Below are positions 20,443 through 58,639 of a stretch of 64,000 bases of DNA, piece after piece. This DNA is from Nitrospirales bacterium (GTDB lineage Bacteria > Nitrospirota > Nitrospiria > Nitrospirales > UBA8639): the NCBI GenBank assembly GCA_963555755.3, contig OY820905.2, positions 1,600,001 through 1,664,000 of the forward strand, written 5' to 3'. Under the pieces are notes generated by a model. The model was not told where the DNA came from and did no database searches. It saw nothing but the letters and a program-made list of their open reading frames with translations. Both the position numbers and the translations under genes were made by a program. How positions within the stretch are numbered: position 1 is the first letter of the stretch; every line of letters starts with the position of its first letter.

Positions 20443-21513
20443 ATGAGCCATTCAATGAGTGATCCAGTCCTCATATCCATTATTATCCCCACCTACAATG
20501 GTGGCCGGCATCTTGATTCCTGCCTGTCCGCTATTCGCCGGTGCCTGTATGTGCCCCATGAAATCATCGTGGTCGACAATGGTTCTGTTGACGATACCCG
20601 TCAGATTGCTGGTCGGTATAGTGTGGTCATTGTTGACTGTCCTGGACCTTCTGGACCAGGGGCGGCACGCAATGAGGGAGCAAAATTTGCCCAGGGAAAA
20701 ATTTTGTTGTTTGTTGACACGGATGTCATGATTCACCCTGATGTGCTCCATCGTGTTTTGAACATATTCAAGACCCAACCGGAATTGGCAGCGGTGTTTG
20801 GTTCCTATGATACGCGCCCGGCTGCTCAAAACTTTATTTCCCAATACAAGAATTTATTGAACCATTTTGTTCATCAACATGCTCAAAACGAGGCGAGTAC
20901 GTTCTGGGGAGCCTGTGGAGCCATCCGATCAGATGTGTTTCACAAAATTGGTGGTTTTGACACCCACTGTAACAAGCCGGCAATCGAGGATATTGAGATG
21001 GGATACCGTTTGCGTCGAGCAGGGTATCGCATTGTGTTGGACAAACACATGCAGGGGCAACACTTGAAACGGTGGAGTTTTTCCTCCTTGATTCACACGG
21101 ATATTTTCTGTCGAGCCATTCCGTGGACTAAACTGGTATTGGAAAGTCGAACTCAGGTGAATGACCTGAACCTTCACCGGTCGCAAAGAGCCAGCGCCGG
21201 GTTGGTTGGTATGGCCACGATCGGGGCGCCACTTACCATGATTGAACCCCTTGTCTCATTGGCGGTGTTATCGTGTCTCATGGGTGTGTTCCTCTTGAAT
21301 CGAGAGTTATTTAGATTTTTCTTTCGTGAAAGAGGAATGCAGTTTGCCATGTCCTCTTTTCCAATTCACCTGTTGTATTTCTTGTACAGTGGGACCGTCT
21401 TTTCCTCCTACTGGGCCAGTCATACTCTTGTTCGTAGGTCTGTATCTTTTCTGCAATGGTTGGAAAAAGGGAAATTATTTTTCTTTCGGCCTAGGGAATC
21501 GACTGATCCTTAG
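20443..21513 (+). CDS. Glycosyltransferase family 2 with C-terminal TM segments
   Basis: SIIIPTYN, VVDNGSVD, GAARNEG, FVDTD, IEDIEMGYRL. Confidence 0.92.
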   Translation: MSHSMSDPVLISIIIPTYNGGRHLDSCLSAIRRCLYVPHEIIVVDNGSVDDTRQIAGRYSVVIVDCPGPSGPGAARNEGAKFAQGKILLFVDTDVMIHPDVLHRVLNIFKTQPELAAVFGSYDTRPAAQNFISQYKNLLNHFVHQHAQNEASTFWGACGAIRSDVFHKIGGFDTHCNKPAIEDIEMGYRLRRAGYRIVLDKHMQGQHLKRWSFSSLIHTDIFCRAIPWTKLVLESRTQVNDLNLHRSQRASAGLVGMATIGAPLTMIEPLVSLAVLSCLMGVFLLNRELFRFFFRERGMQFAMSSFPIHLLYFLYSGTVFSSYWASHTLVRRSVSFLQWLEKGKLFFFRPRESTDP

Positions 21514-22070: not shown

Positions 22071-23162
22071 ATGATTGGTCAAAAGCAGAGTTGGTTAAGG
22101 ACTCATCGAATGTTAGCTGGGCTGTTGGCTGTGGGGGTACTTGTGTCGTTGGGTGCAACCGTTGGAGGAATTCCTCTTTCTGAAACCATTTTCGGAATTG
22201 ATGGAGTACATCAGGTCGATGGTCAAAATAATTCCCCAGTTCAGGTCGAACTACCCAAACCCTCTTGGCACCTGAATACATATGATGAGAACAAAGCCAA
22301 ACTCATTGTCCTGCCCAGCAATCCAAATATACGGCGAGTCGAAGTGACCCAAGCTGATACGACAGCCAGATGGCACATTCAATTAAGCCACAAACCTATT
22401 ATTGTGGAGGGGCAGGAGTGGTACTCCCTGCGTTTCCGAGCCCGAGCGGATGATGTGCGATCAATGGGGGCGGCCGTCAGTCAAGCACATGGTCCATGGG
22501 AAGTTCTTGGTCTGTATCGTTCAGTTCCCCTGATGAGGCAGTGGCAAGATTATAAATGGGAATTTCTTGCGACAGAGGATGATATCAATGCTCAGATCAC
22601 TTTTGATTTGGGTGGGTGGAAAGTCCCGGTTGAAGTCACAGCGGTTCGGCTCCTGAAACTCTCCAATGGAACGCTAAGGTGGAAGCTACAATTTCGAGAG
22701 GGAAGTGAAGCTGGGTTGCTGGGAATCCCAGAATTACCTCTTGGCACTCGAGTGGCTATTACCAAATCGCTCAACAACAACCCCAAACATATTCAATTGG
22801 TTCAACAAGGGGTAAACCTCCAGGTGAATGAACGATACCGACTACGATTTCACGCACGTGCTGACACACCACGAGACATGTATTTGGCGGTAAACCAGGC
22901 CCAGTATCCTTGGGAGGGCTTGGGTTTGAATCAAAAGGTTTCGCTCACCTCTGAATGGCAGCTCTTCGATTTGGAATTTGTCGCGACGAGCACAGATGAG
23001 AACGCAAGACTTATTTTTGAGCTAGGCGGACACAATATTCCCGTGGATATCAACGCCGTGTTGTTGCAGAGAAATTCCGAGATGGTGATACACAGTGGGG
23101 ATTCCTCAGCCCCTTCCTTGGGCAGAGCTACAGACACCCTGGTTGCGGTGGAGCCAACCTAA
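22071..23162 (+). CDS. Membrane-anchored or secreted protein with two tandem CBM4/9-like carbohydrate-binding domains
   Basis: Duplicated pattern W/H.IQL.....Y.LRF.ARAD..R...AV.QA..PWE.LGL...V.L...WQ....EF.AT.....A...F.LGG. Confidence 0.8.
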   Translation: MIGQKQSWLRTHRMLAGLLAVGVLVSLGATVGGIPLSETIFGIDGVHQVDGQNNSPVQVELPKPSWHLNTYDENKAKLIVLPSNPNIRRVEVTQADTTARWHIQLSHKPIIVEGQEWYSLRFRARADDVRSMGAAVSQAHGPWEVLGLYRSVPLMRQWQDYKWEFLATEDDINAQITFDLGGWKVPVEVTAVRLLKLSNGTLRWKLQFREGSEAGLLGIPELPLGTRVAITKSLNNNPKHIQLVQQGVNLQVNERYRLRFHARADTPRDMYLAVNQAQYPWEGLGLNQKVSLTSEWQLFDLEFVATSTDENARLIFELGGHNIPVDINAVLLQRNSEMVIHSGDSSAPSLGRATDTLVAVEPT

Positions 23163-23171
23163 ATCCCTTTT

Positions 23172-23293
23172 GGGAATGTTGAAAAAGGGCGTCAGCGGCG
23201 TTCTCGCCCCTTTGTCGTGCTCACGTACTATGAGTACGCTCCGCGCGTCAAAGGGGCTGCGGCCTTGCTGAGCGCTCCTTTTTGAACATCCCC
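23172..23293 (+). mobile_element. MITE with IRs GGGAATGTTGAAAAAG / CTTTTTGAACATCCCC
   Basis: Terminal IRs and internal hairpins; related copy at 14.5-14.75 kb. Confidence 0.8.
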
Positions 23294-23630: not shown

Positions 23631-26621
23631 ATGAAAGCCATTTCGATCCGTGTTGTAGAATCGGTTAAACAACATCCGGTCCTAGCGGGAATACTCGTTA
23701 TGGGGTTTCTGCTTCGGATCTCGGTTGTGTTTTGGGGAACCCCTTTCTTTGGCCCTTTTGAGGGATATTATCACCCTGATGAGTGGAACATTATTCAGGG
23801 TGCTATCCAATTTCCGAACCATGCCGTTGACAATCTAAGATTCGTCTATCCCACCTTCTTCCACTATTTCTTGGGGATTCTGACCTTTCCCTTACGAATA
23901 TTCTTTGAAGACTTTAGTTCTCCCACGCTGGATACTGTAGGTTCAAATTTCTATTGGGTCGTGACGGTCGTCGGACGACTCTGCTCGGTGTTAGCGGGAA
24001 TGGGGACGATAGTTCTGACTTACCTTCTTGCCAAAGATGTGTTGGATCAAAAACGGGCCCTTTTGGCCAGTGCATTTCTGGCCTTTACGATGTTACACGC
24101 CACGAACTCTGCTGTGGTGACTCCTGATGTGCTCACTTCTTTCTTCCTTGTCTTGTTTCTTTTGGTACTTCGCCGTGCATTCTTACAACCTCAATCTTCT
24201 TTTTTGTTTGTGTGTTCGGGGATGGTTCTTGGACTCTTGGTCGGAACCAAATACACCGGAGCGTTTGCGATTTATGCGATGGTGGTACTCTATGGCTATA
24301 CGTTGGTGTCACATGTCCGCCGTGAAAACAGCAATATTCGATTTGATCACCGAAAATTTCATGGGAATCTCCTCCTGTGTGGTGGCGTGGCTCTGGTCAC
24401 ATTTTTTCTGACGACACCAGGAATTTTGCTTCATTTTGATGCCTTCCTTGATTCCATGAATGACGTGACGAGGCAAATTGGGTGGAAATCCAAACCTAGG
24501 AGCGATATGCAAACCTGGGTGACGGTGTTTCATAAATTTGAACGAGGTGTCGGTTTGCCATTAGCGTGTCTTTTTTTATTTGGGATGTTCTTCCCATACA
24601 AAAAGAATGTGTATGAATGGAGTTTTTTGGCGATAGTGGCTGGATTCTTTATGTATTTTGAGGCCAAATTCATTTCAAGGTACATCATATTTGTTGCACC
24701 ATTAATTGCCATCATCGCGAGCAATGCCGTGTTCTGGTTGATCGAAAGGAATCGCAAATCGCTTCGAGTCGCTGGATATTTTCTCATTATTGTTGTCTCG
24801 GTGTATTCCTTTGGCCATTCTGCCACTGGGGTATCTATGCGTCTTGATGATACGCGCACTCAAGCTGCTCATTATATTCACAACAGATTCCCTGACGAGA
24901 CGACCCTCGGAATAACCTATGCTCCCAGAGACGGGGATTATAAATTGCATCGTTGGAGGAACCCAAGAATTAATTTCACCAAGTTCAGAGACATGGATAT
25001 TTTCGATTATCCGGAAGTGGTGATCGTTTCTTCCCTTGTGAAACTAAGACCTATCAAAAAAGCGCTGCACTCCGATAAGTTGTCTGAAGATTTTGTGTGG
25101 GACCAACGGTATAACCATAAATGGCGGTGGGACTCACCTCCCTCACCTCGTATGTTTCGCTTCTACCATGAACTCTTCGAGGCCGATCGCTCAAGATATC
25201 GTCTAGTAAAAACCTTCAAAAAAAAGCTATCCGTCTGGTTAGAACATAGCTCACCCCAAATGGACATTTATGTTCGCCAATCCTATGGCCCACAAATGGA
25301 GAGGAGAGTTTATTATCCCAGCAATCCGCGTGATTACTTTCAAGAGAAAGATATGCGGGATTGGCGCTGGCAGCTTCGAGTGGAAGAGGGCAACAAGGCA
25401 AAGCTGAAATTTCCATCAAAAGACCTGAACGCGATCCGGATTGCCATTAAGAAGGCGGACGTTGGTCCTCCTTGGGCTATTCAACTCAACCAACGGCCAG
25501 TCGCCATACTGAATAATGAGGCGTACGTCTTACATTTTCGTATTCGAGCCGATAATGCCCGATTAGTAGCTGTGGCGGTTGGGCAAACCTCCGCGCCCTG
25601 GCAGACGGTGGGATTGTATCAGCACGTGCAGGTGACGGAGGACTGGCAGGAGTATGCCTTGTCGTTTCGAGCCGAAGCCGATGAGCCTCAAGCGCGCGTA
25701 TTTTTCGATTTGGGGGAGAGTGCTGTATCCGTTGAAATCGGTGATGTGCAACTTCGACACAAGTCGGACGTGGTGTTGGCCAGTCTGACTAGGAGCCGAC
25801 AGGGATGGCGTTCGGCAAATGAATTAATCGAACCCGATTATCCGGATAAGTTTTATGTGGACTATCAGTTCAATACCATGGGGTGTCGGGGCCGGGACTA
25901 TCCTATCCCACGTACGAGCGAGGGCACGCGCATTCTGGTCTTGGGAGATTCGTTGGCCTTGGGTGCCGGGGTGCATCAAGAGGATACATTGGCTAGTCAA
26001 CTCGAAGGGATGTTGAATCAAGGCCGGCAAGGAACAATCACAGGACCGGGCTATGAAGTCATCAACTGTGGGGTAGAAGGGTACGGAACCCAGGAGGCAG
26101 CTAGATTCTACGAAACATTTGGGTCGACCTATGCGCCGGATATCGTGCTGCTGGTTATGGCACCGGACGATGATCACTCGTTGTTCCAGGAAAGGAGGCA
26201 GAAGATATTGAGGAGCCCAGGAAGTCAATTTGTAGCTTGGTCGGACCAACAAGAGAGACTATTTAATCGTTCGGCTCCGGATTATTCGGGGAGCCTCAAA
26301 GAGGTGGCTAACCTTCAACAATTGGTTGAAGGGCGGGGTGGAAAATTGGCAGTGGTGGTCTTTCGACATACTCAGCATCAAGCCTGGAAGCCTCTGATCC
26401 AGCAACTGACCCAATCATTTCGAAACACGACTGTGCAGGTGTTAGATCTCGGGGAGACCTTGCTGGCAAGCCATTCAGAAGATGAGCTGATAGTTCATGA
26501 AGAGGATAAACATCCTAATGATTTGGCACACAGGATCGCGGCACAGGGCCTACGAGATTTTTTAACTCGGAAAGGACTGCTCGTTGGGCAGCCTATCGCT
26601 AGATTGGATGCAACGCTGTAA
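23631..26621 (+). CDS. Fusion: GT-C (ArnT/PMT-like) + CBM4/9-like + SGNH/GDSL hydrolase
   Basis: YHPDE, YPTFFHY, GTKYTG and many TM helices; CBM WAIQLNQ..LHFRIRAD; SGNH VLGDSLALG, INCGVEGYG, DKHPN. Confidence 0.88.
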   Translation: MKAISIRVVESVKQHPVLAGILVMGFLLRISVVFWGTPFFGPFEGYYHPDEWNIIQGAIQFPNHAVDNLRFVYPTFFHYFLGILTFPLRIFFEDFSSPTLDTVGSNFYWVVTVVGRLCSVLAGMGTIVLTYLLAKDVLDQKRALLASAFLAFTMLHATNSAVVTPDVLTSFFLVLFLLVLRRAFLQPQSSFLFVCSGMVLGLLVGTKYTGAFAIYAMVVLYGYTLVSHVRRENSNIRFDHRKFHGNLLLCGGVALVTFFLTTPGILLHFDAFLDSMNDVTRQIGWKSKPRSDMQTWVTVFHKFERGVGLPLACLFLFGMFFPYKKNVYEWSFLAIVAGFFMYFEAKFISRYIIFVAPLIAIIASNAVFWLIERNRKSLRVAGYFLIIVVSVYSFGHSATGVSMRLDDTRTQAAHYIHNRFPDETTLGITYAPRDGDYKLHRWRNPRINFTKFRDMDIFDYPEVVIVSSLVKLRPIKKALHSDKLSEDFVWDQRYNHKWRWDSPPSPRMFRFYHELFEADRSRYRLVKTFKKKLSVWLEHSSPQMDIYVRQSYGPQMERRVYYPSNPRDYFQEKDMRDWRWQLRVEEGNKAKLKFPSKDLNAIRIAIKKADVGPPWAIQLNQRPVAILNNEAYVLHFRIRADNARLVAVAVGQTSAPWQTVGLYQHVQVTEDWQEYALSFRAEADEPQARVFFDLGESAVSVEIGDVQLRHKSDVVLASLTRSRQGWRSANELIEPDYPDKFYVDYQFNTMGCRGRDYPIPRTSEGTRILVLGDSLALGAGVHQEDTLASQLEGMLNQGRQGTITGPGYEVINCGVEGYGTQEAARFYETFGSTYAPDIVLLVMAPDDDHSLFQERRQKILRSPGSQFVAWSDQQERLFNRSAPDYSGSLKEVANLQQLVEGRGGKLAVVVFRHTQHQAWKPLIQQLTQSFRNTTVQVLDLGETLLASHSEDELIVHEEDKHPNDLAHRIAAQGLRDFLTRKGLLVGQPIARLDATL

Positions 26622-26767
26622 ACAGTCTTGCGAAGATGGCAAGAGAGAAACGTGGAAAATGGGTCTATTGGCGCTCCCGCCATTTCTTGTAGATAGGTAA
26701 TGAACGGTCAATGAGGCTAGATGGGTGAGGACTTTCATCCGTCAGAATGAGACGGTCTGAGGGCTGG

Positions 26768-28300
26768 CTAGGCTTTGATGTGGCCAATGTTCGGTGCAGT
26801 AATGGTGGTTTTCAAGCGAGAAATTTTCTTCAAATAGGCAGGAAGATTCGCAAGGAATTTAGATAATAGAGCAAGGATTACCAGGCCTTCTACAATGAAG
26901 CCTAAACGAAACATGATCACGCCTACTAGTATATGACGGCCGACTTCAGCGGCATCCCCATGATAACATACGAAGGCTTGCACCCACGCGTTCATGAGTA
27001 ACCAAAGCGCGACCCATGAGGGCATGCGAACTCCAGAAGCGTAACGTACGCTCCATAAAGCTCCGCACACAGCGAGGAACCAGAGTCCTAAAGGAACTGG
27101 AATATTGGGATACATGAATTGAGTGAGGGTTTGGGTCGCTGCCGTCTGGCCGGCTTCCTGGCCATACACTCTATTCTGGTCATTAATGGTTTCTTGCAAT
27201 GCATGAGTCGCCCCAAGGATTGCGTGAAATGGTCTGTCTAGGGTCAGGTACCGCTGATAAGAGGAACGTCCCTGCTCTGTAATCCAGGTATTAACATCCG
27301 ACAAATTCTTGTCTTTCTTTACATGGCTCAGGAGCCATTTGCCATCTGGTTCTTGGTCCCAAGCCCTTTTTCCTGCCCAAGTTTCGAACCGTTGATTTTG
27401 GGGGAACTCATATTTGTTCTGCCAGTATGTGTAGACATCAGGTTTGGTCAAGACTCGCTCCAACACAACATTAAAGAATGGTATCTCCCATCTCGGTGAT
27501 TGTATCGTTGACCAATATCCGAAACACACGACTATGCCAATTGCAACAGTCGAGATACAAAGACTTGCCGAGACCCCTCTGGAGTCAACTTGAATTCTTT
27601 TTCCAGTGGCCTGGACCAGGATCCAGGTTGCCAGTGCTCCACAGAAAGTTGCCAGAGAAAAGGTCATTGCATCACGAGTGGAGACCAAAAACAGGGATAA
27701 CACGGCCCAGCCAATAATAGCTGTAAATGGAAGCTCTTCCTGTCGATGAAGAAGACGGACATAACGAATGGACACGGCACCGAAGAGCGCCAACAGCGAG
27801 AAAGTTATGGACTCCGATCGGATGACATAATCCCACTGGTTGATCGGGATGCTTAATGAAAAAGCTGAAATGGATGCCGTTGCGATAATCTGAAGGAACA
27901 CTGATTTAAAGCATGCAGCCACCGAGAGTCCCAGGGCAAACCAGCATAAGACAGAGAATATGCTTTGGAACACCACGATGCGGTCTTCATCGGCATTGGC
28001 CAGTTTGTAGAGAAGTGGGACGACAAAGGGTCGTCCACCGAGGTAAAAATGTTTCTCAAGTACGGAATACTTTGCGGCCGAGGCCCACACCCCCGAGTCT
28101 CCAGAATGAACAGGACCCGGGGTGTTTTGAAACGATTGTTGTTCCCCGTACGCCAGGCCAAGAAATAGCAGCGTGAATAGGCCCACCTTAACGATCATCA
28201 AAGCCTGTGGGGGCGGGCTGCATTTCAGGAATTTTAGGAGAATGTGAATGCGCTCCTTAAACAAACGGAGGAATTTGAAGGCCATAGACCATGGCATCAT
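26768..28300 (-). CDS. Multi-pass membrane protein, probably GT-C-like
   Basis: GDS..W, RPFVVPLLY, IRSESITFSL and TRD motifs in the usual GT-C positions. Confidence 0.65.
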   Translation of the reverse strand: MMPWSMAFKFLRLFKERIHILLKFLKCSPPPQALMIVKVGLFTLLFLGLAYGEQQSFQNTPGPVHSGDSGVWASAAKYSVLEKHFYLGGRPFVVPLLYKLANADEDRIVVFQSIFSVLCWFALGLSVAACFKSVFLQIIATASISAFSLSIPINQWDYVIRSESITFSLLALFGAVSIRYVRLLHRQEELPFTAIIGWAVLSLFLVSTRDAMTFSLATFCGALATWILVQATGKRIQVDSRGVSASLCISTVAIGIVVCFGYWSTIQSPRWEIPFFNVVLERVLTKPDVYTYWQNKYEFPQNQRFETWAGKRAWDQEPDGKWLLSHVKKDKNLSDVNTWITEQGRSSYQRYLTLDRPFHAILGATHALQETINDQNRVYGQEAGQTAATQTLTQFMYPNIPVPLGLWFLAVCGALWSVRYASGVRMPSWVALWLLMNAWVQAFVCYHGDAAEVGRHILVGVIMFRLGFIVEGLVILALLSKFLANLPAYLKKISRLKTTITAPNIGHIKA

Positions 28301-28525
28301 GAAGGGTATTCCTTACCTGATAAGCCTGTAATGAAAATAAGCGTTCGAAAAAAACTAACATAACCGGTATCAAGAAACGTTTGCTCGCTCATGTCCAATT
28401 GCATATTCATCAACGCTTCGATGAGCACTTACTTCTATTCGGAGAATTGAGTGGTTTTCTAAAAAACGACGTAGCGTTTTGGTGAAAACCACGGTTGATC
28501 TGATGCCTCCTGAAAAAAACTGGTT

Positions 28526-28692
28526 ACCAATTTCCCAACATTCGTCAAAACACTCCACGAAAATACATCTATACCCTTCCATGGCTTAACAGGTTTAATG
28601 GAGCATTTTTTTCCCACCCCACCGGTAAAACCTGGTCCTTTTCGCTATCTTTTGCTTCCCCCCAGAAAGAAGAGCCGTGGCATAAGCTTTGC
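28526..28692 (+). promoter_or_regulatory. sigma54 promoter cassette D (TGGCATAAGCTTTGC 28678-28692), upstream of gmd
   Basis: Homologous block CAATTTCCCAACATTCGTCAAAACACTCCACGAAAA 153 bp upstream of the GG. Confidence 0.8.
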
Positions 28693-28763
28693 ATAGTGTG
28701 CGAGGTTCTTCTTCTGTTGTGGACGTTCAGTATGTCTCTTTAGACTTCCTTCTCGGCACCTGA

Positions 28764-29490
<727 letters not shown>

Positions 29491-29557
29491 GGCCACAAGT
29501 ACGTTTGCTATTTCCTTACCGATCTTTTCGGAGGAACAGTCCTTTGACGGAAAGCAG

Positions 29558-29770
29558 CCTGTCAATTTCTCAACGCTCGTCAAAACCTTCCACGAAAAAG
29601 AATCCAAACCCTTCGACTGTTCTAAGGGTTAATTGGGTTCGCCTTTCTCACTCCACGCATAGATCGGGGGTATTTTCGAGATCTTTCACTGCCACCTGAG
29701 AAAAAATCCGTGGCATATATTTTGCAAGAATTTCAACGAGTTTCTCCCTTTTCACCGTAGGGTTTGGGTG
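29558..29770 (+). promoter_or_regulatory. sigma54 promoter cassette A (TGGCATATATTTTGC 29711-29725)
   Basis: About 210-bp block homologous to 52575-52780 and to the reverse complement of 62905-63085. Confidence 0.85.
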
Positions 29771-29988
29771 ATGGGGGCTGATCCCAGCGATCACGCCAGA
29801 AAGAAGACGCCGATAAACCATTCAACGGCAAATGGCCAAGCCGTGGGCATTTCAGGAAAATTTTTCGTCATCGCTTCCGATAATAGCGTGCGACACCTTC
29901 GCCAATACTTAGGTACGATACCTGATCAGAGGGTCATATACCTATTTGAAGTCAGTTTCCCCTGTCTATTCCCCGTCATGGTTTTGCG

Positions 29989-32900
29989 ATGAAAATATTA
30001 TCTGAACGAATAATGAAAGTGTTAAAAGAACATCAGATGCTCGCGGCGATACTGGGTATCGGGTTTCTGCTTCGGATATGGGGAATTTTATGGGGAATCC
30101 CTTTCCCAGACCCGTTGGAGGGAATTTATCACCCCGATGAACCTAAAATTATTAAAGGTGCCGTTGAATTTCCCGGACATATTCTCACCAATCAAAATTT
30201 TATTTACCCAACTTTTTTCTCCTATTTTTTAGGATTCATTACGTTTCCGCTTCGGTTATTTTTCGATGGATTTAATGTACCGGGGCCTGGAGGCATAGGT
30301 TCAAATTTTTATTATGTCGTCACGGTGATAGGTCGGCTCTGTTCGGCTCTCGCTGGAACGGGCTCGATTTTCCTCACCTATTTGCTGGCCAAAGATATTT
30401 ATGATGAGAGACGTGCTCTGTTAGCCGGTGCATTTCTTGCGTTGACCTTCTATCACGCGAGTAATTCTTCTGTGGCTACGACTGATGTGCTCACTTCATT
30501 TTTTTTGGTGTTGTTTCTCTTTGTACTCCGCCGTGCCTTTCTCGCCCCAGAATCTCCTTCCTTGTTTATGATATCAGGCATGATCCTGGGCCTCCTGATG
30601 GGTACAAAATATACCGGAGCTATTGTCAGTTTGGCCATTGTGGTGATGTATGTGGACATGCTATGGGGCCGATCGCGTAGTCACAATGAAGGAGGGCACT
30701 TCAACTTACGCACATTGCATGTTCATCTCCTCCTGTGTTGTGGAGCGACTATTGTCACGTTTTTTCTCACGACCCCCGGAATCCTTATCCAATTTAATGG
30801 CTTCATTGATTCAATGGCTTACAATTTCAGGTATGTCGGTCGGTGGGCCATGCCCAGAAACGACTTGGATGTCTGGGTGGCTGTGTTACAAAAGATCGTG
30901 ATGGTGGTTGGGCTTCCCTTGACGAGTGTGTTTCTCCTCGGTCTCTTTTTCCCATACAAGAAGAACGTGCATGAAGTCATCTATATCCTGATTTTGGTTG
31001 TTTACTTTTTATATCTTGAGAACAGGTTGCTACCGAGATACGTGATTTTGGTTGCACCATTGGTGGCTATCATTGCGAGTAATGGATTGGTCTGGTTTTA
31101 TGAGTCGGCGAAAAAACCAGTTCATATCCTTGGGCTTTCGATGATGACGATCGTTTTAGTGTACTCCCTAGGCTATTGTTTGACTGGTGGGTACTTGCGC
31201 TATAACGACACGCGAACCCAGGCGGCACATTTTATCCAGGACACGTTTCCTCAAGGGACAACGGTGGGGCTTGGGTATGTTGCAGAAGAGATCGGTTGGG
31301 CTGCTCACCCTTGGAGGTATCCCCAAATCGATCTGACGCGGTTCACGTATATGGATTTTCTGGATTACCCTGAGGTGTTGGTGACCTCCTCCGAGTATGA
31401 CACCACACGAATTGAAGATGCGCTGAAATCAGATAAGCTGTCAAAGGATTATGTTTGGAATGTGGAGTACAACAAAAATTGGTTTGAATTCTCCCCTCCC
31501 TCTCCTCGGATATTTCGTTTCTATGAAAAATTGTGGTCTTCCGAACGATCACATTATCTGCTCCTGAAAACCTTTAAAATGAAGAATGTCGTTCCTCTGG
31601 AGTTTGGTTCTCCTGAAATTAACATCTATGTTCGTCAGTCCTATGGTCCAAATTTAGTTCGACGGACGTATTATCCTAACAATCCGCGTGGGTATTTTCA
31701 GGAGGAAGATCCGAGAGTTTGGCGGTGGCAGTCTAAGGTTTGGGAGGGGTCCGAGGCCAATCTGGTGTTTCCTGATGAGGATCCCCAAGGCGTACGAATT
31801 GCTATTAGCCGTGCAGGTTCTGATGTGCCTTGGCATATTCAATTGAATCAGGCGCCTGTGGCGGTTAAGGCAATGGAAAAGTACTTGTTACGATTCAGGG
31901 CCCGTGCCGACCACCCGCGTTCCATGGTCCTTGCTCTCAGTCAAGCTGACAATCCATGGCGTAATCTTGGATTGTATCAGGAGGTGGCCCTCACTACGGA
32001 GTGGCAAGACTTTGATGCCGAGTTTATTGCCACGCGGGATGAACTGCGCGCACAAGTGCATTTTGCTCTTGGAGGGAAGGCCGTATCCGTGGAGATCGCA
32101 GGGGTGAGATTGCAGCGAAAATCTGACATTCTGTTAGCAAGCTTGAGCACAACAACACTCTCCTCGTTCGGCTGGGGTATTCATGCGGTCTCCAGTGACC
32201 AAAGTCAATTTATAGAACCTGATCTGCCCGATAGATATTACGTGGAATACCGGCTTAATGCCCAGGGTTGTCGTGGACGGGATTATCCCATACCTCGGTC
32301 TAATCAAGGGATGCGCATTTTGGTCCTTGGCGACTCCTATGCACTGGGGGCTGGGGTGCACGAGGCTGATACTATGGCCAGTCAACTTGAAAGTCTATTA
32401 CATCAAGATAAATTAGGTGCGAGTTCTAGCATGAGCTATGAGGTCATCAATTGTGGGGCAGGTGGGTACGGCACACGAGATGAGGCGGTGTTATCTGAAA
32501 AATTGGTGTCGAGGTATCAGCCGGATGTGGTCTTACTCGTTATGACACCCGACGACGATCAATCCTGGGTTGAAGGGGCAAAACGTGGTGAGTTTGATCA
32601 TCTGAGGAAAGATCGAGATCAATTTGTCTCCTGGTCTGACCACAAAGAAAAACTTTTTCAACGATCTTCTCCGGATTATTCAGGGAGCCTCCGAGCGATA
32701 CATGATCTTCGACAATCGGTTCAAGGTCGTGGCGCACGTTTGGTTGTGGTCCTATTTCGAAATAATCAAGATCAAGCATGGACGCCGCTAGTCAGTCAGA
32801 TAACCGAGGGGCTGAAGGAAACCGGTATCCCCGTATTGGATCTTGGTACAGTATTGTTAAAAAACCAGCCTGGACAGGATCTAACCGTTCACGAGAATGA

Positions 32901-33006
32901 CAAGCATCCAAATGAGATTGCGCACAAGATTGCTGCAGGGGCAATTCTTGCCTCTTTAAATAAAGAAGATTTTTTTAGTCCCCTCGTAGTGCCGAGCAAA
33001 CCCTAA
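29989..33006 (+). CDS. Fusion: GT-C + CBM4/9-like + SGNH hydrolase (paralogue of 23631-26621)
   Basis: Same collinear motifs: YHPDE, GTKYTG, WHIQLNQ..LRFRARAD, VLGDSYALG, DKHPNE. Confidence 0.88.
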   Translation: MKILSERIMKVLKEHQMLAAILGIGFLLRIWGILWGIPFPDPLEGIYHPDEPKIIKGAVEFPGHILTNQNFIYPTFFSYFLGFITFPLRLFFDGFNVPGPGGIGSNFYYVVTVIGRLCSALAGTGSIFLTYLLAKDIYDERRALLAGAFLALTFYHASNSSVATTDVLTSFFLVLFLFVLRRAFLAPESPSLFMISGMILGLLMGTKYTGAIVSLAIVVMYVDMLWGRSRSHNEGGHFNLRTLHVHLLLCCGATIVTFFLTTPGILIQFNGFIDSMAYNFRYVGRWAMPRNDLDVWVAVLQKIVMVVGLPLTSVFLLGLFFPYKKNVHEVIYILILVVYFLYLENRLLPRYVILVAPLVAIIASNGLVWFYESAKKPVHILGLSMMTIVLVYSLGYCLTGGYLRYNDTRTQAAHFIQDTFPQGTTVGLGYVAEEIGWAAHPWRYPQIDLTRFTYMDFLDYPEVLVTSSEYDTTRIEDALKSDKLSKDYVWNVEYNKNWFEFSPPSPRIFRFYEKLWSSERSHYLLLKTFKMKNVVPLEFGSPEINIYVRQSYGPNLVRRTYYPNNPRGYFQEEDPRVWRWQSKVWEGSEANLVFPDEDPQGVRIAISRAGSDVPWHIQLNQAPVAVKAMEKYLLRFRARADHPRSMVLALSQADNPWRNLGLYQEVALTTEWQDFDAEFIATRDELRAQVHFALGGKAVSVEIAGVRLQRKSDILLASLSTTTLSSFGWGIHAVSSDQSQFIEPDLPDRYYVEYRLNAQGCRGRDYPIPRSNQGMRILVLGDSYALGAGVHEADTMASQLESLLHQDKLGASSSMSYEVINCGAGGYGTRDEAVLSEKLVSRYQPDVVLLVMTPDDDQSWVEGAKRGEFDHLRKDRDQFVSWSDHKEKLFQRSSPDYSGSLRAIHDLRQSVQGRGARLVVVLFRNNQDQAWTPLVSQITEGLKETGIPVLDLGTVLLKNQPGQDLTVHENDKHPNEIAHKIAAGAILASLNKEDFFSPLVVPSKP

Positions 33007-33162: not shown

Positions 33163-34961
33163 TTGAAACGCACCGTCATGTTGATCGACACATTAAGCCG
33201 TAAGAGTTCAATGTTTCTCCGATTCCCCCACGTGGGCACCACGGTCTTCCTCATTACTTTGACGGGCCTGTATCTCATTCAGCTAGTCAGCCAGGGCACG
33301 GCCTTATCCTTTTCCGTGATCGAATTAGAGCAGATACATCTTAAAAGCGGTCACGCTTTCGAGGTTAAATTGAGCCCAAATGAATTCCCCATACCGCAGG
33401 GATTCGCTCCCATACTCTATGAACACCTGAAAGCAAAGGGAGGCCCAATCATATATGCAAAACCGGTTATCGGAGAGACAAGGGTGTACTATTTTCTAAG
33501 CAATCTTTTGGATAAACGTTTCCCAGATTTATCGGCTGGAATTTGGACGAAACTTGGGCCAGAAGTACAAACCGTAGCAGAGGTTCGAAGCAAGGGGGAG
33601 GGCCGCTACGGCATAGCTGACGGTGGCCTCGTCTTTAGTGCATCGGATAATTCGAGCCCAATAACTAACGGGCGTGCTTATCAGCTTCGCGTCTCCCGGG
33701 TAGTACCTCCTTACCTTACAATCCCTTTGCAGGTCTTATGTTTCGTCGCAGCACTATTCTTTCTTATTCAAGTATTATCGAAGCTACCTCGAGTATGGAC
33801 AACGCTGTATACCCGTAGTTGTCTGTTCCGCAACCTTGCACCTGGAATTGTGGTCTCGGCGATAAGCATCATTGTGTTTTTTGTTGCCGGAGAGATCTAT
33901 CTACGAGCCACGATTCCCTTTACGGAAAGTAATAACGTATTTACCGTCGATCCGAACATCGGAAATTCGTATAAGCCAGGTGCAGAATTGCGTGCCACAA
34001 ATCACGTTGATTTCTGGACAGTTTCAACAATTAATTCCCTAGGTTTTGTTGATCGAGAACCAATGTTGCCAAAAGATGACGACACGTTCCGCATCGTCAT
34101 TATTGGTGATTCCTATGTTGAGGCGGTGCAAGTCGACATGCAGGATAAATTCTCTGTACTGCTTGAGACTCGTCTCAGACAGAGGTTTCCGGATCGCCCG
34201 ATTGATGTCGTGGCGATGGGAATTGCCGGGACTGGCCAGGTCAATCAACTGGCCTACCTTGAAACCTATGCCGAACTCCTTCGCCCGGTCCTGTGGTTAT
34301 GGTATTTGTCGGCAATGATTTCGCTGATAACTCTCCGCTACTCCAAATGATAGAGAAGGGCGTGAACCTTGCTTATTCGCCGTTATTATTCTTTATCCCG
34401 ACCGAAGATGGATATGATCGAACACAGCTAGCACAGGATGCCTGGTCCCATAGCCTGCATTTGGATTGGGGCGAGACAATCTTACGGCGGTTCGAGTACG
34501 CAAAATCTTTCGACCAATATGCTGAGCTTCTCCCAGAATGGAGCTTCTCTGATGGAAACAGCTATCGTTCCGCGATATGGGATATGTTTCACTATGAGGA
34601 GTTACCGCCGGTGGGCTCGCAAGCGATCAAAATTACGGAATATGCTTTGGATCAATATGTCTCGATGGCCGAGCAACACAACTTCCATCTTCTCCTCGTA
34701 TCAGGAGGGCTTACCAAATTTTGGAGTCATAACAATGCTGATGGAAGACAAAGATTAGAGCGGGGTGCAGTCGAACGCGTTGAACGGTTTGCCGAGGAGC
34801 GTAACCTTCCCTTTCTCGATTTGTATCCGGAGTTGGTGCCTCAAGGAAAATTGAGCGAGATACGTTTTAGATATGATGGACACTGGAACGAAGAAGGGCA
34901 CCGTCGTGCTGCGAAGGGGATGTTTGAATTTCTAGTAAAAAATCCTGAGCTTTTGCGCTAA
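33163..34961 (+). pseudogene. Membrane-anchored SGNH/AlgX-like protein split by a 1-bp frameshift near 34293
   Basis: ORF1 has NSLGFVDRE and IIGDSYVEA; ORF2 continues VMVFVGND...DGHWNEEGH. Adding one G restores RPVLVVMVFVGND. Confidence 0.8.
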
Positions 34962-35039: not shown

Positions 35040-35940
35040 AACAAAGTCATTTATTGGCGGCAACGCTATGTCGAGAATGGGCTAGCCGGCCTTCAGGACC
35101 AGCCCCGCTCGGGTCGACCACCCAAGTATGGTAAAACGTTTCGCAATGATCTGCTCAAGGTGTTAAGCCAACCGCCGCCCCAAGGGTTGGCCCTGTGGGA
35201 CGGGCCTGCCGTGGCCGAGGAGTTGGAGGCACCCGTTGACGCGGTCTGGAAAGTGTTACGCAAAGAAGGCATCAATCTGCAACGGCACCGGTCATGGTGT
35301 ATCAGCACCGATACAAACTTTGCCAGCAAGGCCGCGGATATTGTGGGGCTCTATTTAGCCCCGCCGGTCAACGCCATCGTGCTCTGTGTGGATGAAAAAC
35401 CCAGCATTCAGGCCCTGGAACGAAAAACCGGCTATATCAAAACAGAGAGTGGAAAAGTCATCCGCGCCTACCAAAGCACCTATACACGACATGGCACGCT
35501 CAATCTCTTTGCTGCGCTGGAAGTCTCAACAGGAAAAATTCAGGGCAAAGTGACGCCAGAGAAAAAGCGAACGGATTTTCAAGCCTTTCTGGATGAAATT
35601 GTGGAGGAATACTCTCCAGCCCAAGAGATTCACGTCGTGTTAGATAATGACGGCACCCACAAGAAGAACGACGAGTGGCTCGCACGCCATAACAATGTCC
35701 ACTTTCATTTTCCCCCGACATCCGCAAGCTGGCTCAATCAGGTCGAAATCTGGTTTGGGATCTTTTCCCGGAAAGCTCTCCGGGGCGCTTCCTTTGCCAG
35801 TCCTCACCAACTGAGACAGCGTATCGAAGATTGTATCGAACACGACAACCCAAACGCCAAACCATTTAAATGGCGGAAAAGGGAAGTCAAGGGATCGCAG
35901 CTTAAAGATAATATAGCTAACTTAACAAATTAAACACTAG
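35040..35940 (+). mobile_element. IS630 second copy, 5'-truncated (no left IR)
   Basis: Near-identical to about 5567-6467, including the right IR ...AATTAAACACTAG. Confidence 0.92.
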
Positions 35941-36766
35941 CAATGATTTCTTGACCTTCTTTTTCACCTCTTTCCAGAAACAATTTTCGAGTATTGAATT
36001 ACACATTGCTGGGTCCCTGGCATACACGAGTTCTCCCGTTTCCCCTAAACTGTAGGGGGAACCTTCCCAATGATTCAGATTTGCAACCCGGTGAACATGG
36101 TCAATGATACCTTGATACATGATAATGTGTGGCTTCACCTTGATAACAGGATCCACTAATCCATGTTCAATAGCCGCGAGCATGTGTTGCGGCCCGTATC
36201 CGGGGGTTCCAAAATTGTATATTTGATACTGTTCATGAGTAAGGATTCCCACCGTATACGGCATGGCTTCGTGATTATTGACGCCTTCTCCAAATGTCAC
36301 AGAACACCCAAAGAACACAAGAGATCTCCCTCCAGAGTTGGTGCTCTGGTTATAGGGAGGCGCAATACGAAGTCCGTATTCATCAGTTGTGATGGCCACT
36401 TCGTACACGGGTGTATTATCGTGTATTCGAATCTTTCGTGCGATTCGGTCAGAATTTGGCTCTTCCGTCCAACCGAGTATGTCGTCGCCCCTACCGTTAT
36501 AGACATTCTCCATCCGGTACTTGTTTTCCCCCACAGACTGGTCGAGTTGAAAACTCAAATACCATTCCCCTAAGACGAGAATGACCAATAGGGCCATTAA
36601 TGTTGATCGATGCTAATTTGAGAAAGGTCCCACGACAGACAATCCCCGAAACAAGGAGGGCTCCTCCCCAAAGTGCCACGACCCACATGTTTGGGTTTGG
36701 TATGTATTCAAGTAAAAGCCATGAAAGGAACAGGGGGATTATCCAAAACAGTATGCGTGCGTTCAT
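35941..36766 (-). pseudogene. SGNH-like membrane protein, frameshifted near 36600 and truncated by IS630
   Basis: TM-rich start MNARILFWIIP; other frame has TDEYGLR, FFGCSVTFGEGV, NFGTPGYGPQH. Ends at the IS right end. Confidence 0.75.
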
Positions 36767-37571: not shown

Positions 37572-38576
37572 ATGGACATGGTGAGTAGTGAACAGCCGAC
37601 GCAAACCCTGCCCCCCCCGGACGTCTCAGTCATCATTCCCTCCTTTAACAGTGCCCCTCATGTCCGCCAATGCCTGGATGCCCTGAAGGCCCAAATTACC
37701 ACATGTTCCTATGAAGTGATTCTGGTTGACAGCTCACAAGACGCCACACATGACATCGTGACTGACGAATATCCTGACGTGAGACTGTTCCATTTTGATG
37801 AGCGATGCTCAGTGGGCAAAGCACGCAATATTGGGGTTGAGAAAGCCAAGGCGGAAATCGTGTTATTTTTGGATACGGATTGCGTGCCCATTCCCACATG
37901 GCTCGAGCAACTGTACTCGGCCCTTCAGAGTCATCATGTGGTGGGGGTTGGAGGGGCCATCGAGAATGGCACTCCGACAAATATCATGGGGTCGGTGGGG
38001 TTTTACCTCGAATTTTTTCGGTTCCTTTCCTGCAAGGGTTCACCGTGTTTTTCCACATTTCTCATGGGAGGCAATTCGGGGTTTAGAAAAACGGTGTGCC
38101 AATCTCTTCCATTTAAGGATGCCAGTATTGGCGATGATTTCCTGTTTACATGGCATTTGGTTCACAGTGGAAGGCCGTTGTTGTTTGTACCCTCCGCGGT
38201 TGTTCGACACATTAATAAAACCGGACTCCGAAACGTATTAAATTATCAATACCAATTGGGGCTTGGGGCTTGTGCCTATCGTCAAACGGTGTCACCCAGG
38301 CTCAGTTCCTCTATGAAGCGCCTCCCGCCGGCCATTTTCTTGTCTTCAGTTTTTGTCCTGTTCTGGATTGGATGCCTCGTTCTGAAACGGGAAAAGGTTT
38401 TTGATGGGATCAAGTTTTTCCTATTACTTCCCTTTCTCTTGTTTGGACATTTGGTGTGGGCCACGGGTTTCTTTCGGGAAATCATGCGAATACGAAAACT
38501 TCAACCTCACCGACACCCACAAGATCCTTTGATGAGAATGCCACAGTCTGAAGCAGGAGGACAGGCAAAGGGATGA
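37572..38576 (+). CDS. Glycosyltransferase family 2
   Basis: AAGGAGGAG RBS; VSVIIPSFN, VILVDSSQD, ARNIG, FLDTDC. Confidence 0.92.
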   Translation: MDMVSSEQPTQTLPPPDVSVIIPSFNSAPHVRQCLDALKAQITTCSYEVILVDSSQDATHDIVTDEYPDVRLFHFDERCSVGKARNIGVEKAKAEIVLFLDTDCVPIPTWLEQLYSALQSHHVVGVGGAIENGTPTNIMGSVGFYLEFFRFLSCKGSPCFSTFLMGGNSGFRKTVCQSLPFKDASIGDDFLFTWHLVHSGRPLLFVPSAVVRHINKTGLRNVLNYQYQLGLGACAYRQTVSPRLSSSMKRLPPAIFLSSVFVLFWIGCLVLKREKVFDGIKFFLLLPFLLFGHLVWATGFFREIMRIRKLQPHRHPQDPLMRMPQSEAGGQAKG

Positions 38577-38679
38577 GCATGTGCTCAAGCAATAGCTACT
38601 CGACATTCCAGTTTTCAGGGCACGTCCAAGGGGGAAGGAATAGTTGCGTCACTCAACACCCCTCGATGAGGATCACCTC

Positions 38680-39498
38680 ATGAATCATCCACCTATGTCA
38701 TCACACCTGAATCTGGATGGGTATTTTGGGTTGCGAGAAGTCTGGCGATGCCGAAGTCTTTTCCACATTCTCGTAATGAGGGATCTGAAAATCAAATACC
38801 AGCGGTCTCCCCTTGGGTTTCTTTGGACGTTGCTGAACCCCTTATGTACTTCCCTCATTTTGATCACGGTCTTTACTTATATTATCAAAGTGCCAGTTGA
38901 CCATTATTGGGCCTTCCTGCTGAGCGGGTATTTTGTCTGGAATTTTATGCACCAGGTGCTCCTTCAATCCACGAATTTGTTGAGAGACCATGCCAACCTC
39001 AGGCGTAATATGGCGTTTCCAAGTGAAATTCTTATTTGGAGTGCTGCATTTTCAAGGCTGCTGGAATTTCTGATCGAAATCAGTCTGGTAATAATCGGCC
39101 TGATGGTGTTTCATCATCAGGGCATTCCGACCAGCCTGGTTCTGTTCCCCTTGCTCATTGTTATTCAGATATTTCTCACCGTCGGGTTGATGTACCCCCT
39201 CTCGACGCTCTCAGTTTTTTTCCACGATGTGTCGTATGCGTTGCCAGTTGTTATTTTTACGTTGTTTTATCTCTCTCCCGTATTTTATCCCATAGAAATG
39301 ATCCCGGAGATTGTTCGGCCATACAGTTTTCTCAATCCTTTCTCCGGAATTCTAACCCTGTATCACGCGGTTTTGTACGATGGGCTCTGGCCTTCAATGT
39401 TTTTGCTCAGTTCAGTCTTCGGTAGCGCACTTGTTATTTGTTTGATTGGGTATGCCATCTTTAATCGGTTCAAACATACCTGTGTCGAGATTGCCTGA
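38680..39498 (+). CDS. wzm: ABC-2 polysaccharide transporter permease
   Basis: RDLKIKYQRSPLGFLWTLLNPL, FYLSPVFYP, LNPF. Confidence 0.92.
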   Translation: MNHPPMSSHLNLDGYFGLREVWRCRSLFHILVMRDLKIKYQRSPLGFLWTLLNPLCTSLILITVFTYIIKVPVDHYWAFLLSGYFVWNFMHQVLLQSTNLLRDHANLRRNMAFPSEILIWSAAFSRLLEFLIEISLVIIGLMVFHHQGIPTSLVLFPLLIVIQIFLTVGLMYPLSTLSVFFHDVSYALPVVIFTLFYLSPVFYPIEMIPEIVRPYSFLNPFSGILTLYHAVLYDGLWPSMFLLSSVFGSALVICLIGYAIFNRFKHTCVEIA

Positions 39499-39637: not shown

Positions 39638-40876
39638 GTGCCCATGCTGGAAGTAAAAGTTCGTTCCGCTAAGCAGACTGCGGAGCCCGCAACAATAGGC
39701 CAGATTGAACGGCCGCTCGAGGATGTCGGCACTCGCCCCATAGTATCCGTTGTCATGCCATGCCTCAACGAGAGTGAGACAATCGGCGCATGCATCGAGA
39801 AGATTCAAGACACGTTCGCCGCTTTCAATATCCAAGGGGAGATCGTCGTTTGTGACAATGGGTCAACTGATAGCTCTGTCACGATCGCTGAGTGTTTGGG
39901 TGCGCGCGTAGTTCACCAACCGATCCGTGGGTACGGCAATGCTTACCTGAAAGGATTCGCTTGCGCACGTGGAGTGTACCTTATCATGGGTGATGCCGAT
40001 GACACCTACGATTTCACGCTGATCCCTAAGTTTTTGGACCTCCTAATGAATCAGGATTGCGACTTTGTCACCGGGAGTCGCTACCTTGAGGGAGGGCACA
40101 GGCACATCACTAGCCTACATCGTATCCTAGGCAATCCGGCGCTGACCGGAATCCTCAACGCCCTATTCGGGACCGTGTACACGGACGTGTATTGCGGCTT
40201 TCGCGGGTTTAGCCGGAAGGCCTATGACCTCATCCAGCCGGTTAGCCCTGGGATGGAGTTTAACCTCGAGCTGGCGATCAATGCAGGTCTGGCGGGGCTG
40301 AAGATAGCTGAAGTGCCAATCCAACTGGGCCCCCGCAAGGGGGAGTCGAAGTTACGAACGTTCCAGGATGGGTGGCGCAGCCTGCGAATGATGCTTCTCT
40401 ACTGCCCGAACAAGGTCTTTTTCTGGCCTGGTGCTTTGCTCCTTTGCAGTGGCATGCTAACGCATGTAGCGGTATTACTCGGTTTAGTGATGTGGAATGG
40501 CCGATCAGCGGGTGGTGTCACCGGAGTCTTTGGGACAATCTTCAGCGTCGTGGGGTTCCAAATCCTGACCCTGGGCCTTCACGCCAAAACCTACTCTTGG
40601 AGCCGACGTTTCGACAAAAACAACACAGCGCTGGAGAGGTTCTACCGATTCTTCAATCTGGAAGCTGGACTTGCTATGGCTGCCGGGTTGATCGGCACCG
40701 GTGGGACTATCCTCATCATCCTCATCAACCAATGGCTGAAGGCAAACATGCTGCCTCTGCCACACCCGGAATGGGCATCCTTTGCGGCTACCATGATTAT
40801 CATCGGTTTTAGCACACTTTTCTCATCTCTGTTTATTTCAACCATGTCAATGGACAAGGGAAAGGGGGGTGGTTGA
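39638..40876 (+). CDS. GT2, polyprenyl-phosphate glycosyltransferase (DPM1-like) with C-terminal TMs
   Basis: SVVMPCLNE, DNGSTD, GYGNA, MGDADDTYD, VTGSR, GESKLRTFQDGWRSL. Confidence 0.92.
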   Translation: MPMLEVKVRSAKQTAEPATIGQIERPLEDVGTRPIVSVVMPCLNESETIGACIEKIQDTFAAFNIQGEIVVCDNGSTDSSVTIAECLGARVVHQPIRGYGNAYLKGFACARGVYLIMGDADDTYDFTLIPKFLDLLMNQDCDFVTGSRYLEGGHRHITSLHRILGNPALTGILNALFGTVYTDVYCGFRGFSRKAYDLIQPVSPGMEFNLELAINAGLAGLKIAEVPIQLGPRKGESKLRTFQDGWRSLRMMLLYCPNKVFFWPGALLLCSGMLTHVAVLLGLVMWNGRSAGGVTGVFGTIFSVVGFQILTLGLHAKTYSWSRRFDKNNTALERFYRFFNLEAGLAMAAGLIGTGGTILIILINQWLKANMLPLPHPEWASFAATMIIIGFSTLFSSLFISTMSMDKGKGGG

Positions 40877-58637: not shown

Positions 58638-58639
58638 CC

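Follow-up and report, generated by a model that had tools for sequence, protein, structure and literature searches.

Two putative membrane glycosyltransferases fused to a CBM4-SGNH module in a probable polysaccharide locus of a Nitrospirales bacterium

The stretch analysed here, hereafter the window, comprises 64,000 nucleotides of contig OY820905.2 (positions 1,600,001 to 1,664,000, forward strand) from a Nitrospirales bacterium with a 4.6 Mb genome (G000) that is 99.4% complete. It contains two genes encoding the proteins P0001 and P0002, in which a putative membrane glycosyltransferase of the GT-C fold is followed by a CBM4-like carbohydrate-binding module and an SGNH domain. The original prediction, made from the sequence, had described two triple fusions of about 1000 amino acids. 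This was borne out, as both open reading frames are free of stop codons and the order of the Pfam matches agrees with the predicted folds. The two genes and their parts are as follows.

23631..26621, + strand: fusion gene 1 (P0001, 996 amino acids), GT-C, CBM4 and SGNH, from a stop-free open reading frame, Pfam and an AlphaFold model
23631..24845, + strand: membrane core of the P0001 GT-C, residues 1-405, with 11 predicted transmembrane helices
23778-23783, + strand: codons of D50 and E51 of P0001
24846..25286, + strand: extracytoplasmic alpha/beta domain of the P0001 GT-C, residues 406-552, aligned along AglB and ArnT
25350..25763, + strand: CBM4-like beta-sandwich of P0001, residues 574-711, inserted in the lead-in of the SGNH domain
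25848..26570, + strand: SGNH domain of P0001, residues 740-980
25950-25952, 26166-26168 and 26505-26513: P0001 SGNH sites S774, D846 and D959-K960-H961, to which G817 is added
29989..33006, + strand: fusion gene 2 (P0002, 1005 amino acids), architecture as in P0001
About 29989-31644, about 31708-32121 and about 32233-32964: GT-C, CBM and SGNH parts of P0002, with the SGNH sites S783, D855 (replacing Asn) and D971-K972-H973

The paralogues are 53% identical from end to end over 993 columns, and both showed the Pfam order PMT_2, CBM_4_9, Lipase_GDSL_2. The expectation values (E) for P0001 and P0002 were 1.8e-12 and 1.7e-11 for PMT_2, 1.2e-6 and 5.3e-7 for CBM_4_9 (above the cut-off), and 1e-3 and 2e-5 for Lipase_GDSL_2 (below the cut-off). 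Contigs from two studies (runs X2 and X5) covered both genes with no differences and no gaps; they possibly represent the source samples and hence are not independent. An assembly artefact as source of the fusion was ruled out by the two paralogues, nine other full-length clusters and the matching contigs.

A full-length AlphaFold model of P0001 was built on a 42-row alignment and reached a mean predicted local distance difference test (pLDDT) of 86.5. Residues 6-552 matched AglB best (3waj; Z 30.1, root mean square deviation (rmsd) 6.7, 444 residues aligned); further fold matches were Stt3, ALG12, PMT and ArnT (5f15, Z 25.1). With its 11 helices and a first loop of 75 residues in the model, the protein agrees with the GT-C_A type, which has 7-13 transmembrane helices and an extracytoplasmic loop after the first one. 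The acidic HPDE motif of the original prediction is present and corresponds to D50/E51. These residues belong to a set (R29, H48, D50, E51, R116, H156, D166, K207 and R350) with a conservation of 90% or more across 67 close GT-Cs, and both paralogues have the whole set; D50 was found in 64 of 65 proteins, as was E51, D166 in 66 of 67 and R350 in 63 of 63. Acidic residues after the first helix are thus combined with D166 and the conserved outer-face basic residues K207 and R350, as is typical of GT-Cs. Lysine and arginine residues numbered 14 inside versus 6 outside in P0001 and 11 versus 6 in P0002, with helix ends placed by hand from the model. Across 11 helices this bias predicts an N-terminus inside and a tail outside, beside the active-site loops of the GT-C. 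The SGNH and GT-C sites would therefore share the periplasmic face of the membrane in the AlphaFold-based topology. Only Pfam PMT_2 and PMT matched the GT-C half at family level, no NCBIfam model scored above its cut-off, and no PDB GT-C was matched at sequence level. ArnT (GT83), AglB, PMT and ALG12 share the predicted fold of residues 6-552 (Z 25-30), but are only 10-14% identical to the fusion and none carries a CBM-SGNH tail. Judged by these models, P0001 and P0002 are likely membrane glycosyltransferases of the GT-C fold fused to a CBM4-SGNH module.

The CBM lies where it had been placed, between the YYP.NPR.YF segment and the N..G.RG.DY lead-in of the SGNH domain. Residues 574-711 of P0001 form a predicted beta-sandwich, match the CBM_4_9 profile and superpose on CBM4 structures (1gu3, Z 17.9; 1gui, Z 17.8) with rmsd values below 2 throughout (1.7 for 1gui). 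W615 and W657, kept in 12 and 11 of 13 fusions, align to two tryptophans of 1gui, which we take to be its sugar-stacking residues. The best fold match of the SGNH domain was CgnD (8a2n; Z 17.6, rmsd 3.2, 213 residues aligned) over residues 562-979. Since this range spans both sides of the CBM, the latter appears as an insertion in the SGNH lead-in. Modelled alone, the 444-residue module (553-996) reached a pLDDT of 89.4 and a predicted template modelling score (pTM) of 0.83. Foldseek returned CE2 esterases as top rows for the module, together with CBM4s, SsfX3 and thioesterase I. CE2 (2waa, 2wao) and SsfX3 (3skv) likewise have a beta-sandwich followed by SGNH, and CgnD shares the SGNH fold including the lead-in; all three differ in domain arrangement (rmsd about 21 Å), are 11-15% identical and lack a GT-C fusion.

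The SGNH domains had been described as intact. This proved correct for the GDS serine (S774, S783) and the DxH motif (D959-H961, D971-H973), and P0001 carries canonical residues in block I (S774), block II (G817) and block V (D959, H961). It did not apply to block III, in which Asp (D846, D855) replaces the oxyanion Asn. The view of the paralogues as diverged yet intact stands for their divergence and their stop-free frames, and falls short at the same missing residue. Block III reads Pro-Asp-Asp in the fusions versus mostly x-Asn-Asp in stand-alone relatives. The catalytic Ser is present in 13 of 13 fusions, Asp in 12 of 12 and His in 11 of 12, with all three kept in 11 of 12. Position 960 is Lys, Arg or His in 14 of 16 fusion-clade rows versus 6 of 78 Asn-type proteins. 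The fusion clade is odd in that its block III is like that of mostly dead relatives, yet the triad is retained. Comparison of the paralogues gave a nonsynonymous rate (dN) of 0.33 versus a synonymous rate (dS) of 2.16 for the SGNH domain and 0.35 versus 1.45 for the transmembrane core, with dS near saturation; purifying selection on the SGNH domain equals that on the GT-C core.

Beyond being real, this architecture is rare, and it is undescribed in the literature searched, which covered few subscription papers and yielded none on a fusion of a GT-C (or ArnT) with SGNH. Its rarity, on which the original prediction had depended, was evident from 11 full-length sequences and an occurrence in 2 of 115 genomes of the family. 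A word search in which 7997 candidates were scored yielded 30 proteins. Among 227 proteins compared, 13 matched both GT-C and SGNH profiles, namely the 11 full-length fusions (P0001 and P0002 included) and 2 truncated ones, and the rest comprised 114 with CBM and SGNH only and 66 with GT-C only. An exhaustive search gave 767 representatives (50% identity) under E 1e-30. Among the best 150 of them only P0009 and P0006, plus the unrelated P0159, spanned the junction; the others matched residues 1-553 or 554-990 of P0001 or the CBM repeats. So few junction-spanning proteins among the best 150 led to rejection of a common architecture. The two genomes with the fusion, G000 and G005, belong to one genus and were recovered both among 41 relatives and among the 115 family genomes; in G005 the contig ends inside the GT-C. 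The fusion was not found in the 400 other genomes of a phylum sample (401 with G000; G005 evidently fell outside the sample). A pattern scan of genome contigs yielded one relative among 39 candidates, a GT-C-only gene in whose genome no CBM-SGNH match was found, and atlas searches returned PMT_2 clusters and unnamed or GDSL clusters, with nothing new.

Within the CBM-SGNH family, the SGNH domains of the fusions group as a single clade, with a support of 96 in one tree and of 0.969 (16 rows) in a second. In the GT-C tree (63 rows), 12 fusions share a clade of 18 rows with six proteins that are unfused or truncated. P0001 and P0002 occupy different subclades, which indicates an old duplication, and the fusion proteins have diverged to 41-65% identity. 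At one locus (L014) the fusion gene is flanked by two stand-alone CBM-SGNH genes, both Asn-bearing, an arrangement that fits a fusion of neighbouring genes. A scan of 33 long matches showed that P0159 (1089 amino acids) joins an unrelated PMT_2 GT-C to the CBM-SGNH module, while others join GT2 or GT4. P0159 branches elsewhere in the SGNH tree, and its GT-C was fused to the same module independently. Unfused PMT_2-type GT-Cs occur in 12 of 33 long SGNH loci.

The surroundings of the fusion genes contain the following features.

20443-21513 and 37572-38576: GT2 genes, further candidates for polyprenyl-phosphate-sugar synthases
22071..23162, + strand: stand-alone protein, hydrophobic in an N-terminal segment, whose two CBM4 copies are the nearest relatives of the fusion CBM within the genome
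26768..28300, - strand: 510-amino-acid membrane protein between the paralogues, without a match to Pfam, NCBIfam or the fusion profile
28800..29632, + strand: broken GDP-mannose 4,6-dehydratase (gmd) gene between the paralogues, frameshifted, 3' end missing, start approximate
33163..34961, + strand: stand-alone membrane-anchored SGNH gene, frameshifted, just downstream of fusion gene 2
35917-36597: SGNH-like gene cut by an IS630-like element
38644..39498, + strand: ABC-2 permease, Wzm-like (Pfam)
39638..40876, + strand: GT2 with a C-terminal hydrophobic region, candidate polyprenyl-phosphate-sugar synthase by its inferred role
58616-59461: ATPase of the ATP-binding cassette (ABC) type, Wzt-like (Pfam)

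GT2 and GT4 genes are numerous in the window, which also encodes two additional PMT_2 proteins and has three further SGNH genes, of which one is frameshifted and one cut by the IS630-like element. The frameshifted gmd and SGNH (33163-34961) genes are identical in the run contigs. The Wzm-like and Wzt-like genes suggest that the locus makes an ABC-exported glycan, and an ABC-exported surface polysaccharide is the likeliest acceptor. In another genome (G455) a stand-alone CBM-SGNH gene directly precedes wzm-wzt and has GT4 genes on its other side; wzm-wzt are followed by radical SAM and SPASM-GT2 genes resembling those in the window.

Glycosylation and acylation of surface glycans normally fall to separate machines of the periplasm, and an acylating SGNH protein normally has its acyl supplier as membrane partner. 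ORF12 of family GT136 (Citrobacter youngae) and the mycobacterial EmbC and AftD resemble the fusion in the GT-C core, the acidic residue after the first helix, an Arg at about position 350 and a periplasmic CBM at the C-terminus (PMC11127046). According to the same source, the CBMs of all three bind acceptor polysaccharide; GT136 acts on ABC-exported O-polysaccharide, which its CBM binds although it is dispensable. No SGNH domain is described there for these enzymes, and the fusion CBM is instead family-4-like and inserted in the SGNH lead-in. AlgX, AlgJ and PatB1 are alike in DxH spacing, the lack of a block III Asn, an appended CBM (AlgX) and an extracytoplasmic site. AlgX, however, is circularly permuted, has GTSYS as block I and is fed by an MBOAT protein, whereas the fusion has the normal order (Ser before His), GDS and no MBOAT found in its genome; the fusions gave no ALGX Pfam match at E 0.01. 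OatA and OafB (AT3-SGNH) and MBOAT-SGNH fusions such as P0092 likewise combine a polytopic membrane domain with a C-terminal extracytoplasmic SGNH domain. Their membrane domain delivers the acyl group, whereas that of the fusion is the putative glycosyltransferase, so any acyl donor must come in trans. By analogy, the fusion is best viewed as resembling GT136, Emb and AftD with an added AlgX-like tail, and as neither a canonical SGNH hydrolase nor an MBOAT- or AT3-linked system.

Our tentative preference, at a probability of roughly 0.4, is an enzyme with two functions, which would transfer a lipid-linked sugar to the ABC-exported polysaccharide of the locus and atypically acylate the same chain. 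A GT2 of the locus would make the polyprenyl-phosphate-sugar, and the GT-C, using D50/E51, D166, K207 and R350, would move the sugar in the periplasm onto the glycan exported by Wzm/Wzt. CBM4 would hold the glycan chain, and S774 would accept an acyl group from a membrane-side donor and hand it to the glycan. For this last step the oxyanion hole would have to be rebuilt, possibly around D846 and K960. Enzymes without the block III Asn can be active: PMC9487903 describes AlgX as an active acetyltransferase with DxH spacing, Tyr for the block III Asn and a CBM, and PatB1 as active with an Arg anchored by Asp instead. A GT-C carrying such an SGNH domain would constitute a single tailoring station and raise the question of the acyl source, given that no MBOAT could be detected in the genome. 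For the tail of 444 residues, prediction points to a soluble fragment that should be easy to assay.

Several findings weigh against an acylating tail. All 12 fusion domains scored lack the block III Asn; 11 have Asp in its place and one has Gly. According to PMC9487903, this Asn forms the oxyanion hole in SGNH enzymes, and its replacement by Ala abolishes SaOatA activity. The catalytic His is lost in the fusion P0012 and in the independent fusion P0159. P0013, P0014 and P0033 nest in the fusion clade of the GT-C tree without the module, although their short junction-like tails may reflect frameshifts or assembly errors. Absent from these nested GT-Cs and present on an unrelated GT-C, GT2 and GT4, the module seems loosely attached. 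The pTM of the whole protein was only 0.64 versus 0.83 for the module alone, so the model does not establish the joint placement of the two active sites.

The donor presents a further difficulty. No acyl-donor gene, MBOAT or AT3 was detected in the window by Pfam, and no MBOAT in G000 either by Pfam (the control was positive in 3 of 14 genomes) or by the MBOAT-like part of P0092. P0001 and P0002 have no MBOAT or AT3 partner, either within the same chain or among the genes of the window; a single AT3 is encoded by a 359-codon frame about 1 Mb from the window. The best candidate donor in the genome would be carbamoyl on an SxtK-like microprotein, the alternative being acetyl from the stand-alone AT3. 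The best other in-genome match to the fusion SGNH sits in a carA-carB-carbamoyltransferase-SGNH-sxtJ-microprotein cluster (G000:C1:4295996-4305319; L096:996-10320), and a second carbamoyltransferase-sxtJ-microprotein cassette lies at G000:C1:816375-818938 (L097). A C-terminal FxYxxF end occurs in 8 of 114,254 stop-terminated frames of the genome; two of the eight are membrane microproteins of about 50 amino acids beside carbamoyltransferase and SxtJ, presumably SxtK-like. Their Tyr is invariant in 17 aligned copies, which were picked by the motif. In DltX and PatA, FxYxxF serves as the acyl-shuttle motif (PMC12148441). Carbamoyltransferase genes occur in 17 of 68 loci of simpler SGNH relatives. 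Linkage to the fusion is missing: neither the window nor the 12 CBM-SGNH loci L014-L025 contain the carbamoyltransferase-SxtJ-SxtK-SGNH cassette, which lies elsewhere in the genome, and no carbamoyltransferase, MBOAT or shuttle-motif frame was found in those 12 loci, several of which are short. SxtK-like genes are present in 65 of 115 family genomes, which makes their presence in both fusion genomes uninformative. No paper linking carbamoyltransferase-SxtJ-SxtK to SGNH or to an acyl shuttle was found in the same literature. A carbamoyl donor for the fusion is thus possible but unlinked. The more specific relay, in which a cytoplasmic carbamoyltransferase would load the invariant Tyr of a DltX-like SxtK independently of MBOAT and the group would pass, at the periplasmic end, to the Ser of the fusion in a rebuilt Asp/Lys site, so that one chain branches and carbamoylates the surface polysaccharide, is distinctly improbable. 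Block III Asp as a carbamoyl signature was ruled out, as the SGNH protein beside the carbamoyltransferase in G000, encoded at G000:C1:4303142-4304368, keeps Asn. The placement of that SGNH protein beside the CBM-SGNH clade (support 86) was judged a long-branch join and not used.

Nearly as likely as the bifunctional enzyme, although doubtful in itself, is a GT-C that is the sole enzyme, with a CBM4-SGNH module that is non-catalytic or almost dead and would bind the acceptor, selecting or holding a possibly acylated glycan. The 110 stand-alone proteins scored in this context excluded 4 fusion fragments, and rows gapped at the relevant positions were dropped. The block III Asn is present in 77 of the 110, and 73 of these 77 have an intact triad, versus only 7 of 32 to 8 of 33 of those without it (25 of 33 broken). 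Asn loss thus tracks triad loss (Fisher p 6e-14, a significance inflated by kinship, which was not corrected for), and relatives with Asp in block III have a broken triad in 12 of 13 cases. The Pro-Asp motif recurs in P0159 and in the Ser-less stand-alone proteins P0066, P0068 and P0188, and the module is attached to several glycosyltransferase types. The top Foldseek rows for the module include CtCE2 in complex with cellohexaose (2wao), an enzyme that reportedly has a non-catalytic binding role. Against a tail that only binds, 11 of 12 fusions keep the whole triad at 40-66% SGNH identity to P0001, and only 77 of 244 columns are as conserved, although the 12 domains are related to each other. 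With a tail that only binds, the fusion would go modestly beyond GT136, Emb and AftD. The natural contrast between Asn-type, Asp-type and triad-less domains would in any case be of use for studying how an SGNH enzyme turns into a binding module.

An SGNH esterase that strips O-acyl groups from the glycan or from the lipid-linked donor so that the GT-C can act is unlikely. It would need no donor, in agreement with a 99.4% complete genome in which no MBOAT was found and a locus with no donor gene, and CE2 esterases head the Foldseek rows, though with a whole-module rmsd of about 21 Å they share only the domain order. The DxH spacing, however, is described for the AlgX transferase family in PMC9487903, and stand-alone relatives adjoin donor systems, namely carbamoyltransferase-SxtJ-SxtK in the 17 of 68 loci and MBOAT-SGNH fusions in 9 loci. 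Less probable again is a chance fusion that arose from gene order in a single lineage, with independent halves that perhaps act on different substrates. The junction near residue 553 is sharp and lies between two common stand-alone families, the L014 fusion sits between two stand-alone CBM-SGNH genes, and the fusion clade has a single origin with the module lost in some members. Yet the fusion was retained through an old duplication and divergence to 41-65% identity, has its own block III change unlike its Asn-bearing L014 neighbours, and has a counterpart in the second GT-C joined to the same module. A protein or peptide acceptor with SGNH as a slow peptidase like CgnD, a slow protease according to PMC10070186, is very improbable: AglB, Stt3 and PMT rank as high as ArnT in fold match and a distant GT-C relative (P0047) carries tetratricopeptide repeats, but the acceptor cannot be read from differences in Z between GT-C folds, and the Wzm/Wzt polysaccharide locus and the CBM in the module argue otherwise.

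The stand-alone CBM-SGNH proteins (P0016-P0026, P0055-P0227) form a large unstudied family with frequent pseudoenzymes, 29 of 110 having a broken triad, often as paralogues. P0092 (L049:3393-6308) is a fusion of about 970 amino acids with an SGNH domain and a membrane part missed by Pfam MBOAT, which we take to be MBOAT-like from its motifs. The same type occurs in L041, L050, L054, L057, L067, L071, L080 and L086; the cassette around it recurs and includes additional SGNH genes as well as genes for a PMT_2 GT-C and an acyl-CoA dehydrogenase. P0093 (2994 amino acids) and P0114 (1317 amino acids) carry a UbiA-type prenyltransferase domain followed by 7 to 19 CBM4-like repeats.

SPASM-GT2(-GT4) fusion proteins with nearby radical SAM genes were found in the window (54243-58637) and at L108:16612-19899, and recur in CBM-SGNH loci. 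Two tandem, near-identical membrane proteins of 570 amino acids without Pfam match (42168-43880 and 44137-45852) are probably further GT-Cs, the first giving a weak match to the GT-C profile (E 7e-4). A 294-amino-acid open reading frame without Pfam match (525-1409, - strand) lies downstream of an FAD-binding oxidoreductase gene. A palindromic intergenic repeat of 124 bp (23169-23292) upstream of fusion gene 1 resembles repetitive extragenic palindromic or miniature inverted-repeat transposable elements and has 310 BLAST matches in the genome, 245 of them of at least 90 bp.

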